Source of the DNA: Escherichia coli
Lineage (GTDB): Bacteria; Pseudomonadota; Gammaproteobacteria; Enterobacterales; Enterobacteriaceae
Assembly: GCF_044647545.1 (NCBI RefSeq)
Contig: NZ_CP172818.1
Strand: one strand, 5' to 3'
DNA length: 64,000 nt
Below are positions 4,978-61,123 of the stretch, piece after piece. The notes under the pieces were generated by a model. The model was not told the origin of the DNA. It did no database searches and saw only the letters and a list, made by a program, of their open reading frames with translations. A program made the translations under genes and the position numbers. The stretch's first letter is position 1, and each line of letters opens with the position of its first letter.

Positions 4978-5726
4978 GATGCACTCCCGACTGGCGTTTT
5001 CAGCCCGGAATAGTTCAACAGGCACCAGTTAGCCAGCGTCAGTATCTCTTCAGCCGCCAGCGCATCACTGCGGTATTCACCGACTGGTTGCTTAGCCGCC
5101 AGGCATTGAGCCATCGCTTCATCACGATGAATGAGTATTGGCAGTAATCGGCGCTGGCTTTGCAACCAAAGCTGGTAAATATCGTCCTGAACCTGACTGC
5201 CGATACGGAAGTCATTAATCAAAATATGCGCGCCATCCGGCAGCGCTTGCTGATGCAGTCGGATATGGCAGTTGGCATCCACATTGACGATTGCCAGCGA
5301 GTGATCGCACAAACTCAGCAGCTGGTGGGTTATCTGTGAGGCATCACGCGGTAAGTCAATTAAAATCCACTGGTAACGCCCGCTGGCTTTTAGTTGCTGT
5401 AAGCCGGAGCAAATATCGCTCAGCCGGGTTTGCCAGTGCTGTGGATTTTCTTGTTCTTCAATGGATAACTGACCAAAAGGCAGCAAATCGAGCTGCGAGG
5501 TATAGCGCAACCCGGCGTCACGCCAGTCCTGGCCATCCAGCATAGCTCTGGCCCAGCCCTGACGGTGGGTAAAATCAACGTTAAATGACAGGCGCAACAA
5601 GTTGTCCGGGCAGGCATCGACCACCAGGACATTTTCTCCCAACATTTGTAATGACCAGGCTAATGCGGCGGTGATGGTTGTTGTCCCCACGCCTCCCCGC
5701 ACCCCCTGCAATCCCAGTACGGCCAT
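4974..5726 (-). CDS. bcsQ: Cellulose biosynthesis protein BcsQ (MinD/ParA-like ATPase); intact reading frame
   Basis: 250-aa ORF starting MAVLGLQGVRGGVGTTT (deviant Walker A); overlaps bcsA start by 4 nt; codon 6 is TTG (plus-strand caa at 5709-5711), so there is no premature stop. Confidence 0.85.
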   Translation of the reverse strand: MAVLGLQGVRGGVGTTTITAALAWSLQMLGENVLVVDACPDNLLRLSFNVDFTHRQGWARAMLDGQDWRDAGLRYTSQLDLLPFGQLSIEEQENPQHWQTRLSDICSGLQQLKASGRYQWILIDLPRDASQITHQLLSLCDHSLAIVNVDANCHIRLHQQALPDGAHILINDFRIGSQVQDDIYQLWLQSQRRLLPILIHRDEAMAQCLAAKQPVGEYRSDALAAEEILTLANWCLLNYSGLKTPVGSAS

Positions 5727-9871: not shown

Positions 9872-9938
9872 GTGGTCTAGAGTCAAGATTAGCCCCCGTG
9901 ATGTTGTCAGGTGCATACCTGCAACGTGCGGGGGTTTT
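9872..9938 (+). ncRNA. rdlD: Antisense antitoxin RNA RdlD (approximate boundaries)
   Basis: Plus-strand GC hairpin (cccccg...cggggg, 9893-9934) followed by TTTT lies in the ldrD 5' leader, where the Rdl antisense RNA is expected; the 5' end is a guess. Confidence 0.4.
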
Positions 9939-10301
9939 CTCTCTCCAGCAACCAATGCCACCAGGGATAAAGCCCCCGCAACATTGCGCCTCACCGGAAC
10001 CTTTCCGGCTTGCCACTGATTCTACGATTGCTTTTTACCGTCAGCACCCGGCAATCTTCCTCATTGCGTGATGCATTCCAGCTTAATTTCTTTATTTGCA
10101 ATAGTTGCAGTTCATATCCGGGCTGACTCCAGACTGGTAGTGAAATGCGCATTTTTGTAGAATTGCGCCTCCTCGCGACCTCCCCAGTGAATCTGTTGCC
10201 TCATTTTTTACATACTGCGTATTCGACTTCTCCACCTGTTGCGCAAGAGAAACTGGGTTTATTCATTTTTGCGAGGCCGACTTCTTTCTGGACAGGACTT
10301 T

Positions 10302-17287: not shown

Positions 17288-17857
17288 TATTCTGCTCCAA
17301 TTGTGATGTTTGTTGTTTTAACCCTTTGCAGTGGGTTGTCGCCGCCTGACCTTTTTTGTTTTTTGCCCGGTCGGGTCAACGTTATGAGGTGGGGATGCCG
17401 TACTAATTAACATCAGTGTAACAGTGCGGATCCTCCAGAAAATGCCCCTCGTGACCTACAATCTGTCAACAGAATGTGAAAACGTCAATACAGCCAACCG
17501 GGATTTACACCAACGGTGAGAATCAACAAACAAAGATTAAAAAAACTTCAAACAGCTATTTGCAGCAGAGAAATTTGTGCTACGCCAACACAACCAGAAC
17601 AATCAGCTTAATATTTAGCAACATTTGGTGATTAAGTTTTATGCATTTAATGAAAAAAATCTGAGGTAAAGGTGGATATCTGAGCGATTAATACCATGAA
17701 CGCTAAAACGCACAGGGGAAAATGCCAGCGCCAGCCATAAGTAACGCAAAAAAAGATTTAAGCAAATATAAAAAAAGACAATGGTTTCTGTCACAAATCC
17801 GTTAATGGATAGTGAGATATGGGGCGCAAATTTGGCAGGGAAATGTGTGGTGTGTAG

Positions 17858-17960
17858 ATCGGATAAGGCGGTCGCGCCGCATCCGACAATGGGCCGGTAC
17901 ATTTGCCTGATGCGACGCTGACGCGCCTTATCAGGCCTGCATCGAGTCGAACCTCCTTGT
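17858..17960. repeat. BIME/REP element (two inverted REP units)
   Basis: ggataaggcggtcgcgccgcatccgaca followed by gcctgatgcgacgctgacgcgccttatcaggcctgc; matches the REP consensus pattern (GCCGGATGCGGCG...CTTATCAGGCCTAC). Confidence 0.6.
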
Positions 17961-18801: not shown

Positions 18802-18878
<77 letters not shown>

Positions 18879-30038: not shown

Positions 30039-30234
30039 TTGCATCACCCGCCAATGCGTGGCTTAATGCACATCAACGGTTTGACGTACAGACCATTAAA
30101 GCAGTGTAGTAAGGCAAGTCCCTTCAAGAGTTATCGTTGATACCCCTCGTAGTGCACATTCCTTTAACGCTTCAAAATCTGTAAAGCACGCCATATCGCC
30201 GAAAGGCACACTTAATTATTAAAGGTAATACACT
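30039..30234 (+). promoter_or_regulatory. cspA: cspA promoter (-35 TTGCAT, -10 CTTAAT, AT-rich UP element) and about 160-nt cold-responsive 5' UTR
   Basis: TTGCAT at 30039-30044 and CTTAAT at 30062-30067 with a 17 bp spacer; a long leader precedes the ATG at 30235, consistent with the thermosensing cspA 5' UTR. Confidence 0.7.
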
Positions 30235-30447
30235 ATGTCTGGTAAAATGACTGGTATCGTAAAATGGTTCAACGCTGACAAAGGCTTCGGCTTCATCACT
30301 CCTGACGATGGCTCTAAAGACGTGTTCGTACACTTCTCTGCTATCCAGAACGATGGTTACAAATCTCTGGACGAAGGTCAGAAAGTGTCCTTCACCATCG
30401 AAAGCGGCGCTAAAGGCCCGGCAGCTGGTAACGTAACCAGCCTGTAA
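30235..30447 (+). CDS. cspA: Major cold shock protein CspA
   Basis: 70-aa [73 protein letters not shown]; RNP1 motif KGFGFI and RNP2 motif VFVHF. Confidence 0.95.
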
Positions 30448-30474
30448 TCTCTGCTTAAAAGCACAGAATCTAAG

Positions 30475-30502
30475 ATCCCTGCCAAATGGCGGGGATTTTT
30501 TT
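30475..30502 (+). terminator. Rho-independent terminator of cspA
   Basis: Hairpin atccctgcc-aaat-ggcggggat followed by TTTTTTT. Confidence 0.7.
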
Positions 30503-32237: not shown

Positions 32238-32473
32238 CTGTCCAACTTTTTGGGGTCAGTACACACTTTGATTTATAGTCAGGTGGGGCTTTTCTCTGTC
32301 TGCCTTTCGGTGAATACCTGAGACAAACAGTCTCAAGCACCCGTGGCTATTCTAGCTTAATAAGTTCGTTTCTTCTCCTTGATATAATCCTAAAAAAATC
32401 TCATAAAATTAATATATGAGACAATCTTTATTCAGCAGAAGATTATTAAAGGTTGCTCTATTATTTAGCGATA

Positions 32474-57079: not shown

Positions 57080-58576
57080 ATGACGCAATACTGGCTGGGG
57101 TTAGATTGTGGCGGTAGCTGGCTGAAAGCCGGGCTGTATGACCGCGAAGGCCGGGAGGCAGGCGTGCAGCGCCTGCCGCTGTGCGCATTAAGCCCGCAGC
57201 CAGGTTGGGCAGAGCGCGATATGGCAGAACTGTGGCAATGCTGCATGGCTATCATTCGCACCCTGCTTACTCATTCTGGTGTCAGCGGGGAACAAATTGT
57301 CGGTATCGGCATCTCCGCACAGGGAAAGGGCTTGTTTTTGCTGGATAAAAACGACAAGCCGCTCGGTAACGCCATTTTGTCCTCGGATCGCCGGGCGATG
57401 GAAATCGTTCGTCGCTGGCAGGAAGATGGCATCCCGGAAAAACTCTACCCGCTGACCCGACAAACCTTGTGGACCGGGCATCCGGTGTCGCTGTTACGCT
57501 GGCTGAAAGAGCACAAACCAGAACGCTACGCGCAAATTGGCTGCGTGATGATGACGCACGACTACCTGCGCTGGTGTTTAACCGGCGTCAAAGGTTGCGA
57601 AGAGAGCAATATTTCCGAGTCCAATCTCTACAACATGAGTCTTGAGGAATATGACCCGTGCCTCACCGACTGGCTGGGGATCGCTGAAATCAACCACGCC
57701 CTGCCGCCTGTTGTCGGATCTGCCGAAATCTGCGGGGAAATCACCGCTCAGACAGCCGCACTGACCGGTCTGAAAGCGGGTACGCCCATTGTCGGCGGCC
57801 TGTTTGATGTGGTTTCCACCGCACTCTGTGCCGGGATCGAAGACGAATTTACCCTTAATGCGGTGATGGGCACCTGGGCGGTGACCAGCGGCATAACCCG
57901 TGGTTTACGTGACGGTGAAGCGCATCCGTATGTCTATGGTCGCTACGTTAACGATGGTCAATTTATCGTTCACGAAGCCAGCCCCACCTCTTCCGGCAAC
58001 CTCGAATGGTTTACCGCACAGTGGGGAGAAATCTCGTTTGATGAGATTAACCAGGCCGTTGCCAGCTTGCCAAAGGCCGGGGGCGATCTCTTTTTCCTGC
58101 CGTTCCTGTACGGCAGCAACGCCGGACTCGAGATGACCAGCGGTTTCTACGGGATGCAGGCCATTCACACCCGCGCACACCTGTTGCAGGCCATTTATGA
58201 AGGCGTGGTGTTCAGCCATATGACCCATCTCAACCGGATGCGCGAACGTTTTACTGATGTGCACACCCTGCGCGTCACTGGCGGCCCGGCGCACTCCGAT
58301 GTCTGGATGCAAATGCTGGCGGACGTCAGCGGGCTGCGTATCGAACTGCCGCAGGTGGAAGAAACCGGCTGCTTTGGTGCGGCACTTGCCGCCCGCGTCG
58401 GCACCGGAGTTTATCGCGATTTCAGCGAAGCCCAACGTGATTTACAGCACCCGGTACGCACCCTGCAGCCGGATATGACCGCACATCAGCTTTACCAACA
58501 AAAATACCAACGTTATCAGCATCTCATTGCCGCACTTCAGGGCTTTCACGCCCGCATCAAGGAGCACACATTATGA
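57080..58576 (+). CDS. lyxK: L-xylulose/3-keto-L-gulonate kinase
   Basis: 498-aa ORF; FGGY kinase N-terminus MTQYWLGLDCGGSWLKAGLYD. Confidence 0.85.
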   Translation: MTQYWLGLDCGGSWLKAGLYDREGREAGVQRLPLCALSPQPGWAERDMAELWQCCMAIIRTLLTHSGVSGEQIVGIGISAQGKGLFLLDKNDKPLGNAILSSDRRAMEIVRRWQEDGIPEKLYPLTRQTLWTGHPVSLLRWLKEHKPERYAQIGCVMMTHDYLRWCLTGVKGCEESNISESNLYNMSLEEYDPCLTDWLGIAEINHALPPVVGSAEICGEITAQTAALTGLKAGTPIVGGLFDVVSTALCAGIEDEFTLNAVMGTWAVTSGITRGLRDGEAHPYVYGRYVNDGQFIVHEASPTSSGNLEWFTAQWGEISFDEINQAVASLPKAGGDLFFLPFLYGSNAGLEMTSGFYGMQAIHTRAHLLQAIYEGVVFSHMTHLNRMRERFTDVHTLRVTGGPAHSDVWMQMLADVSGLRIELPQVEETGCFGAALAARVGTGVYRDFSEAQRDLQHPVRTLQPDMTAHQLYQQKYQRYQHLIAALQGFHARIKEHTL

Positions 58577-59235
58577 GCCGACCACTTCTGCAACTGGCCC
58601 TCGACCACTCATCACTTGAAGACGCACAGCGCGACGTGACGCTGTTAAAAGACAGCGTCGATATCGTCGAAGCGGGCACCATTCTCTGCTTAAACGAAGG
58701 GCTTGGCGCAGTGAAAGCCTTGCGCGAACAGTGCCCGAACAAAATCATCGTCGCTGACTGGAAGGTCGCCGACGCGGGTGAAACGCTCGCGCAACAGGCG
58801 TTTGGCGCAGGCGCTAACTGGATGACCATCATCTGCGCCGCACCGCTCGCGACGGTGGAAAAAGGCCACGCGATGGCGCAACGCTGCGGTGGTGAAATTC
58901 AGATCGAGTTGTTCGGTAACTGGACGCTGGACGACGCCCGCGACTGGCATCGTATTGGCGTGCGGCAGGCCATTTATCATCGCGGTCGCGACGCGCAGGC
59001 CAGCGGGCAACAGTGGGGGGAGGCCGATCTGGCACGCATGAAGGCGCTTTCCGATATCGGCCTTGAGCTTTCCATTACCGGCGGTATTACTCCTGCTGAT
59101 CTGCCACTGTTTAAAGATATCCGCGTAAAGGCGTTTATTGCCGGACGGGCGCTGGCAGGCGCGGCAAATCCGGTGCAGGTGGCTGGCGATTTCCATGCAC
59201 AAATTGATGCCATCTGGGGAGGTGCGCGTGCGTAA
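58573..59235 (+). CDS. sgbH: 3-keto-L-gulonate-6-phosphate decarboxylase
   Basis: 220-aa ORF; OMP-decarboxylase-like fold; 4-nt overlap with lyxK. Confidence 0.85.
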
Positions 59236-60088
59236 TCATCCGTTAGGGATTTATGAAAAAGCGCTGGCGAAAGATCTCTCCTGGCCGGAGCGGCTGGTGC
59301 TGGCAAAAAGCTGTGGCTTTGATTTTGTCGAAATGTCGGTGGATGAAACCGACGAACGGCTCTCACGTCTTGACTGGAGCGCCGCACAACGTGCTTCGCT
59401 GGTCACTGCGATGATCGAAACGGGTGTTGCCATTCCGTCAATGTGCCTGTCTGCCCATCGTCGTTTTCCCTTTGGCAGCCGGGACGAGGCAGTGCGCGAA
59501 CGGGCGCGGGAAATCATGAGTAAAGCGATTCGCCTGGCGCGCGATCTCGGCATTCGCACCATCCAGCTGGCAGGTTATGACGTCTATTACGAAGACCACG
59601 ACGAAGGCACCCAACAACGTTTTGCTGAAGGGCTGGCGTGGGCAGTCGAACAGGCGGCGGCATCACAAGTCATGCTGGCGGTGGAGATTATGGATACCGC
59701 GTTTATGAACTCCATCAGCAAATGGAAAAAATGGGACGAGATGCTCGCCTCGCCGTGGTTCACCGTCTACCCGGACGTCGGCAACCTCAGCGCCTGGGGC
59801 AATGATGTTCCCGCCGAACTGAAACTGGGCATTGACCGTATCGCCGCGATCCACCTGAAAGACACCCTGCCAGTCACCGGGCAAAGCCCCGGACAGTTCC
59901 GTGATGTGCCGTTTGGCGAAGGCTGCGTCGATTTCGTTGGCATCTTCAAAACGCTGCATGAACTGAACTATCGCGGATCATTTCTGATTGAGATGTGGAC
60001 CGAAAAAGCCAAAGAGCCGGTGCTGGAGATTATTCAGGCGCGGCGCTGGATTGAAGCGCGTATGCAGGAGGCCGGATTTATATGTTAG
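59228..60088 (+). CDS. sgbU: L-ribulose-5-phosphate 3-epimerase (L-xylulose-5-phosphate 3-epimerase)
   Basis: ORF 59138..60088 trimmed to an in-frame GTG at 59228 (286 aa, [16 protein letters not shown]...); overlaps the sgbH end by 8 nt. Confidence 0.75.
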
Positions 60089-60777
60089 AGCAACTAAAAG
60101 CCGACGTGCTGGCGGCGAATCTGGCGCTTCCCGTTCATCATCTGGTGACGTTCACCTGGGGCAATGTCAGCGCGGTAGACGAAACGCGGCAATGGATGGT
60201 AATCAAACCTTCCGGCGTCGAGTACAACGTGATGACCGCCGACGATATGGTAGTGGTTGAGATAGCCACCGGTAAGGTGGTGGAAGGCAGAAAAAAACCC
60301 TCGTCCGACACGCCAACGCATCTGGCGCTTTACCGTCGCTATGCCGAAATTGGCGGTATTGTGCATACCCACTCGCGCCACGCCACCATCTGGTCGCAGG
60401 CCGGGCTGGATCTCCCCGCCTGGGGCACCACGCACGCTGATTACTTCTATGGTGCCATCCCCTGCACGCGACAGATGACCGCAGAGGAGATCAACGGCGA
60501 GTATGAATACCAGACCGGCGAAGTGATCATTAAAACCTTCGAAGAACGTGGGTTGAACCCGGCACAAATCCCGGCTGTACTGGTGCATTCTCACGGCCCG
60601 TTCGCCTGGGGAAAAAACGCCGCCGATGCGGTGCATAACGCCGTGGTGCTGGAAGAGTGCGCCTATATGGGCCTGTTCTCGCGCCAGCTTGCACCGCAGC
60701 TCCCTGCGATGCAAAACGAACTGCTGGATAAGCACTACCTGCGTAAACATGGGGCCAATGCCTATTACGGGCAGTAA
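60082..60777 (+). CDS. sgbE: L-ribulose-5-phosphate 4-epimerase
   Basis: 231-aa ORF; class II aldolase/AraD-like. Confidence 0.85.
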
Positions 60778-61123
60778 TCCCTCACGCCGGGGCTTCATTG
60801 CCCCGGCACTACGAATTGATATGTTCCTTGCTGTAACGTCGCTTCCACGCAGCTGGCGTTAAGCCGGTGTGTTTGCGAAAAATCTGCCGGAAATAGCCGA
60901 CGTCATTAAACCGTATTGCCTGGAACAGGCCGACAACGGCGAGTCACTGCATAACCTGTGGCTGCCCGCCGATGCGCCATTTACGACATTTGAAGGTAAT
61001 GGATTGTTCCGCCATAAGATCTTAATCCAGGCACCGGGTTACCGGTATGAACAGAGCAATCCAGAGCAGCAACCGCTGTGGCATTACGACAGTGCGCCAG
61101 CCGCACCGACATCCACCGGTGAA

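Follow-up and report, generated by a model that had tools for sequence, protein, structure and literature searches.

The window, a 64,000-nt stretch of an Escherichia coli genome, carries the gene cluster lyxK-sgbH-sgbU-sgbE on its plus strand (Table 1). This gene order was confirmed, and sgbU lies between genes for a UlaD-type decarboxylase and an AraD-type 4-epimerase; the last 10 kb of the window is collinear with, and 97.3% identical to, the yiaK-S operon of strain K-12. Every junction within the cluster overlaps, by 4, 8 and 7 nt, respectively. At the junction between sgbH and sgbU the upstream frame reads ATC TGG GGA GGT GCG CGT GCG TAA and the downstream frame GAG GTG CGC GTG CGT AAT CAT CCG. 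The end of SgbH is genuine, since the NF009831 model is matched over positions 1-220 of 220.

Table 1. Genes, initiation signals and other features of the window
Feature	Coordinates	Strand	Remarks
lyxK CDS	57080..58576	+	overlaps the sgbH start by 4 nt (ATGA)
sgbH CDS	58573..59235	+	220 aa, 3-keto-L-gulonate-6-phosphate decarboxylase
sgbU CDS	59228..60088	+	286 aa plus stop, L-ribulose-5-phosphate 3-epimerase family
sgbE CDS	60082..60777	+	overlaps the sgbU end by 7 nt
sgbH stop codon TAA	59233..59235	+	
sgbU initiation codon GTG	59228..59230	+	start annotated in RefSeq and K-12; SD duplex -12.6 kcal/mol
sgbH/sgbU overlap GTGCGTAA	59228..59235	+	8 nt; -8 'NTGNNTAA' spacing class
Shine-Dalgarno (SD) GGGGAGGTG	59216..59224	+	lies in sgbH codons specifying the conserved C-terminal Trp-Gly-Gly
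Candidate start GTG	59222..59224	+	288-aa form; SD duplex -7.2 kcal/mol, SD core overlaps, spacer 0
Candidate start ATG	59207		SD duplex +0.3 kcal/mol
Candidate start ATG	59195..59197	+	297-aa form; SD duplex -5.9 kcal/mol, 11-nt spacer
Candidate start TTG	59138..59140	+	longest-ORF start, 316 aa; SD duplex -3.7 kcal/mol
cspA thermoregulator	30075-30502	+	
rdlD antitoxin RNA	9875-9940	+	
sok antitoxin RNA	32246-32342	-	
naRNA4	17857-17937	+	
tRNA-Pro(CGG)	18802-18878	-	

The first-pass annotation had proposed that sgbU is initiated at a GTG codon inside the 3' end of sgbH, and not at the head of the longest open reading frame, and its account of the sequence holds in nearly all particulars. 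The GTG is in frame with the open reading frame ending at 60088 and gives 286 codons, the overlap with sgbH is indeed 8 nt, and the longest frame (59138..60088) does encode 316 aa in another frame than sgbH. The purine-rich stretch gggaggtgcg, to which an SD role had been ascribed, was located at 59217-59226, with its GGAGG core (59218-59222) 5 nt from the GTG. The codon at 59138, by contrast, had been given as ATG where homologues beginning there were named as grounds for rejecting the proposal, and is in fact TTG. Four further in-frame candidates had gone unlisted (ATG 59195, TTG 59204, ATG 59207 and GTG 59222).

The proposed start is the one in current use. In three E. coli genomes (100%, 95.5% and 93% identity), the RefSeq PGAP annotation begins sgbU at the equivalent of window 59228, and in the K-12 MG1655 reference (NC_000913.3) sgbU (b3582, NP_418039.2) occupies 3749232..3750092 with sgbH ending at 3749239, so that the GTG start, the 8-nt overlap and the 286-aa length are identical to those of the window. 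The proposal therefore coincides with curated annotation and adds nothing new to it: the start of sgbU at GTG 59228 is correct, ordinary and already known. Version 2 of NP_418039, together with 297-aa entries in nr, suggests that the start was perhaps revised earlier from a longer form. The sgbH-sgbU segment of K-12 is 95.5% identical to that of the window and has no difference relevant to the sgbU start, and the segment of E. coli FDAARGOS_497 is 100% identical.

The K-12 annotation labels the SgbU product 'putative'. The K-12 protein begins MRNHQLG, with Gln at residue 5 (codons 1-6 at 5233-5250 of K-12 locus L084, window 59228-59245), whereas this residue is Pro in the SgbU of the window and in nearly all of 120 homologues, as part of an H-P-L-G motif that precedes the first conserved segment. 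The Gln5 residue may be connected with the lingering 'putative' label.

Two observations concern the surroundings of the locus. Pseudogene remnants of the K-12 type, ysaC (an AraC-family fragment) and ysaD, occupy the spacer between sgbE and yiaT (60809-61105). The sequence of FDAARGOS_497 does not differ from that of the window until about 60912, and this strain carries an MFS transporter and an intact regulator of the AraC family in the spacer. The arrangement in the window looks like a deletion scar common to it and K-12. Elsewhere in the window, the Rfam and ARAGORN matches (the last five rows of Table 1) are all expected in this E. coli chromosomal region.

Homologues and cross-species comparison

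When the 316-aa frame is compared with database proteins, 104 of its 120 best homologues begin with Met-Arg at the position that corresponds to codon 59228. The others are of three kinds: proteins of the Hafnia and Pantoea type, which are longer by 1-4 residues, a few automatically annotated forms of 293 or 297 aa, and frameshift fusions. The N-terminal alignment with UlaE/SgbU homologues that had been suggested as a check thus supports 59228, and no homologue supports 59138. The NCBIfam model NF009689, which has 286 positions, covers residues 32-315 of the 316-aa frame with its positions 2-285; with position 2 at residue 32, position 1 of the model falls on GTG 59228. Similarly, position 1 of TIGR00542 aligns to residue 32, and the alignment with the UlaE structure 3cqh (PDB; E 3.5e-107) begins at the same residue. 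The 30-residue extension of the longest frame has no match in the family models or in the UlaE sequence.

The product scores 518.7 bits against TIGR00542 (cut-off 272.15), an equivalog model for L-ribulose-5-phosphate 3-epimerase, and 508 bits against NF009689 (cut-off 200) with end-to-end alignment. By model score and gene context, SgbU is assigned to the L-ribulose-5-phosphate 3-epimerase (UlaE/SgbU) family, a function predicted from its sequence.

Two of the database proteins, P0002 and P0014, are 504 aa long and contain both a decarboxylase (PF00215) and an epimerase (PF01261) domain. Their junction reads the 3' end of sgbH in the frame of sgbU, and thus a frameshift inside sgbH fuses the two genes. 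These entries could be assembly errors or real pseudogene or fusion alleles.

A scan of species-representative genomes yielded 80 loci, which come from Enterobacterales and one Tolumonas. At the position homologous to 59228, 71 of them have ATG and five have GTG (three Escherichia species, one E. coli-like MAG and one other); the other four have an ATG 1-4 codons upstream of it. Between the nearest upstream in-frame stop and the homologous codon, 43 of the 80 loci have no in-frame ATG, GTG or TTG. An in-frame stop occurs within 90 nt upstream in 32 loci and within 33 nt in six. Such stops are found even in close relatives, as TAG 45 nt upstream in the E. coli species representative and in E. 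whittamii and as TAA 60 nt upstream in E. albertii, which excludes an equivalent of TTG 59138 there.

The geometry of the window, with the decarboxylase stop at -8, is found in 21 other species loci. For the 22 loci that have this geometry and align without gaps, we calculated the entropy per column for each codon phase. Over the 90 nt that precede the start, it is 1.12 at sgbH third positions, which are the second positions of the sgbU frame, vs 0.29 and 0.35 at the other phases; from +9 to +149 it is 0.79 at sgbU third positions vs 0.11 and 0.04. Variation therefore follows the sgbH frame upstream and the sgbU frame downstream, and the extension is not evolving as sgbU coding sequence. The overlap is ATGCGTAA in Klebsiella, Citrobacter and Raoultella and GTGCGTAA in Escherichia, and the Escherichia GTG is therefore a derived A-to-G change: the ancestral sgbU ATG has been replaced in Escherichia by GTG, 8 nt inside sgbH. 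The same substitution puts Arg in place of His as the last residue but one of SgbH.

Initiation signals and alternative starts

We computed the duplex of the 20 nt upstream of each candidate start with the 3' end of 16S rRNA. The pairing of GGGGAGGTG with ACCUCCUUA (-12.6 kcal/mol) is the minimum of all positions between 57100 and 60770, a 3.7-kb operon segment where values average -2.9 kcal/mol, with a 1st percentile of -10.3 kcal/mol; the SD role assigned to the purine-rich stretch is therefore borne out beyond chance. The G-run belongs to the codons for a conserved Ile-Trp-Gly, C-terminal in the decarboxylase. Its distance from the epimerase start does not change across genera, and nearly all of the 80 loci have a TGGGG(A/G) motif at that distance. 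We consider it very probable that sgbU is translated from GTG 59228 as a 286-aa protein. GGGGAGG (59216-59222), 5 nt upstream, would direct initiation at this codon, and the product would begin fMet-Arg-Asn-His-Pro-Leu-Gly. The sgbU/sgbE junction (60082-60088) also has a strong signal, its overlap ATGTTAG following AGGAGG with a duplex of -10.3 kcal/mol. Among the remaining candidates, ATG 59207 was rejected: it has a poor SD, is unconserved and is absent even from K-12.

Initiation at the longest-frame codon TTG 59138 has in its favor solely that the 316-aa frame is open in the window strain. Its SD duplex is poor, the extension has no coding signal in the sgbU frame, and it is broken by in-frame stops in the E. 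coli representative, E. whittamii and E. albertii, and within 90 nt in 32 of the 80 loci. We regard this start as effectively refuted by the stops of close relatives, and its use in the window strain as wildly improbable. The 297-aa form beginning at ATG 59195, as given in some older GenBank annotations, has somewhat more to recommend it, being initiated by an ATG that is conserved across Escherichia loci and being deposited in nr (P0001, 38 member sequences). This ATG, however, is imposed by the sgbH codons for Phe-His-Ala, is open in only 11 of the 80 loci, and has a weak and badly spaced SD (-5.9 kcal/mol, 11 nt). Variation among the 11 extra codons falls on their own second positions, so that they are not under selection in the sgbU frame, and they are left uncovered by the family models and the UlaE sequence. 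We consider this form very unlikely.

Published start-site data bear on the remaining rival, GTG 59222, from which SgbU would be translated, alone or in addition to the 286-aa form, as a 288-aa protein with fMet-Arg before Val-Arg-Asn-His. INRI-seq uses in-vitro transcripts that comprise 30 nt upstream and 153 nt of each K-12 gene (PMC9825163); the construct excludes the ATG 59195 codon and hence says nothing on that start. For b3582, Table S3 of that study gives an in-frame peak at a GTG at -6 (35.7 CPM, 2/5 replicates), and a further non-annotated peak is reported at an out-of-frame CTG at -14 (37 CPM, 3/5 replicates) (PMC9825163). The two sites lie at K-12 3749217-3749225, window about 59214-59224. 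The GTG corresponds to window 59222 and exists in both the window and K-12, but it is a by-product of the choice between the synonymous codons GGC and GGT for an sgbH glycine, requiring GGT, and an equivalent is found in 0 of the 80 species loci. Furthermore, the GGAGG core overlaps this codon and leaves no SD spacer, and the support for it comes from a truncated transcript in vitro, in two of five replicates (PMC9825163). In the same Table S3, both of these non-annotated sgbU sites have an in-vivo Ribo-RET value of 0 (PMC9825163); sgbU is not mentioned in the TRAINSPOTTER N-terminomics supplements. As both peaks lie on or beside the strong SD, they may reflect SD-anchored ribosomes and not productive starts.

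The distribution of this codon within the species was determined with exact 30-nt junction queries in E. coli genomes. The sgbH-sgbU locus is carried by 4856 of the 5426 complete genomes. The haplotype GGT-GCGC-GTG, which has the -6 GTG, is found in 1883 genomes, and the two haplotypes that lack it, GGC-GCGC-GTG and GGC-AAGC-GTG, in 396 and 2523, respectively, so that GTG 59222 is missing from 2919 of the 4802 typed. All three haplotypes keep GTG 59228, which is thus present in at least 4802 of about 4856 locus-carrying genomes. We read the -6 peak as at most minor, allele-specific initiation in vitro near a very strong SD. Translation from GTG 59222 in strains with the GGT allele is in our view improbable, and we find it just as doubtful that GGT-allele E. 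coli (~39%, including the window and K-12) make SgbU as two isoforms of 288 and 286 aa in an allele-dependent manner. GTG 59228 remains the preferred start.

The sgbH-sgbU segment (58573-60088) is unusually diverse in E. coli, with 60 genomes at >=99% identity to that of the window, 2490 at 95-99% and 2306 at 90-95%. The commonest junction haplotype (GGCAAGC) is also present in a MAG labelled Citrobacter sp.

Overlap geometry and translational coupling

In every one of the 80 species loci, the distance from the epimerase start to the stop codon of the decarboxylase gene falls in the range -8 to +4 nt. Over 81 junctions (the 80 loci and the window), the spacing is -8 at 22, -4 at six, -1 at 14, +1 at 14, +2 at 24 and +4 at a single junction. 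The co-directional sgbH and sgbU genes, with stop and start a few nucleotides apart, have the geometry of a coupled pair. According to a review, the -8 spacing (NTGNNTGA) is the third enriched class, behind -4 and -1, and coupling is most efficient at -4 to +3 and falls with longer overlap (PMC12548453). Coupling is therefore plausible, given that -8 is a recognized enriched spacing and that the stop and start are adjacent in 80 of 80 loci. In this mechanism, ribosomes terminating at 59235 would reinitiate at GTG 59228. We lean slightly towards the view that ribosomes ending sgbH help to load the sgbU start by such termination-reinitiation.

Coupling by RNA unfolding was considered as well. 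The fold of 59178-59278 has an MFE of -26.5 kcal/mol vs a shuffle mean of -27.8 kcal/mol (z = 0.39), i.e. no significant structure, and in the centroid structure at the junction both the SD and the start are unpaired. No structure sequestering the ribosome-binding site was found in this fold, and obligatory coupling of the unfolding type is thus unsupported. In the INRI-seq data, the sgbU region binds ribosomes in vitro with only 30 nt upstream and without sgbH translation (PMC9825163), and the site appears able to initiate alone.

Significance and comparison with known systems

The result has very little importance beyond annotation hygiene. It confirms the curated GTG start with its 286-aa product, where a heuristic based on ORF length would wrongly give sgbU 316 or 297 aa. 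The gene also illustrates cleanly how a start can change from ATG to GTG inside a conserved -8 overlap, and how conserved Trp-Gly codons of an upstream gene can encode an SD.

Like other members of the -8 class (NTGNNTGA/TAA), the sgbH/sgbU junction consists of a start codon, two bases and the upstream stop, with the SD inside the upstream gene; at -8 it lies outside the published coupling optimum of -4 to +3 (PMC12548453). The paralogue UlaE (PDB 3cqh, 3cqi, 3cqj and 3cqk), the L-ribulose-5-phosphate 3-epimerase of the ula operon, resembles SgbU in that its N-terminus lies just ahead of the conserved PLGIYEKAL segment and in that its gene follows a decarboxylase gene whose product has Trp-Gly at the C-terminus. 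In contrast to sgbU, K-12 ulaE begins with an ATG 9 nt past the ulaD stop (CTG TGG GGC TAA GGAGCGGAT ATG), with no overlap and with its SD (GGAG) in the spacer, and the protein has two more N-terminal residues (MLSKQI). Judging from its alignment and N-terminus, the paralogue thus uses the same N-terminal boundary as SgbU, with a non-overlapping junction.
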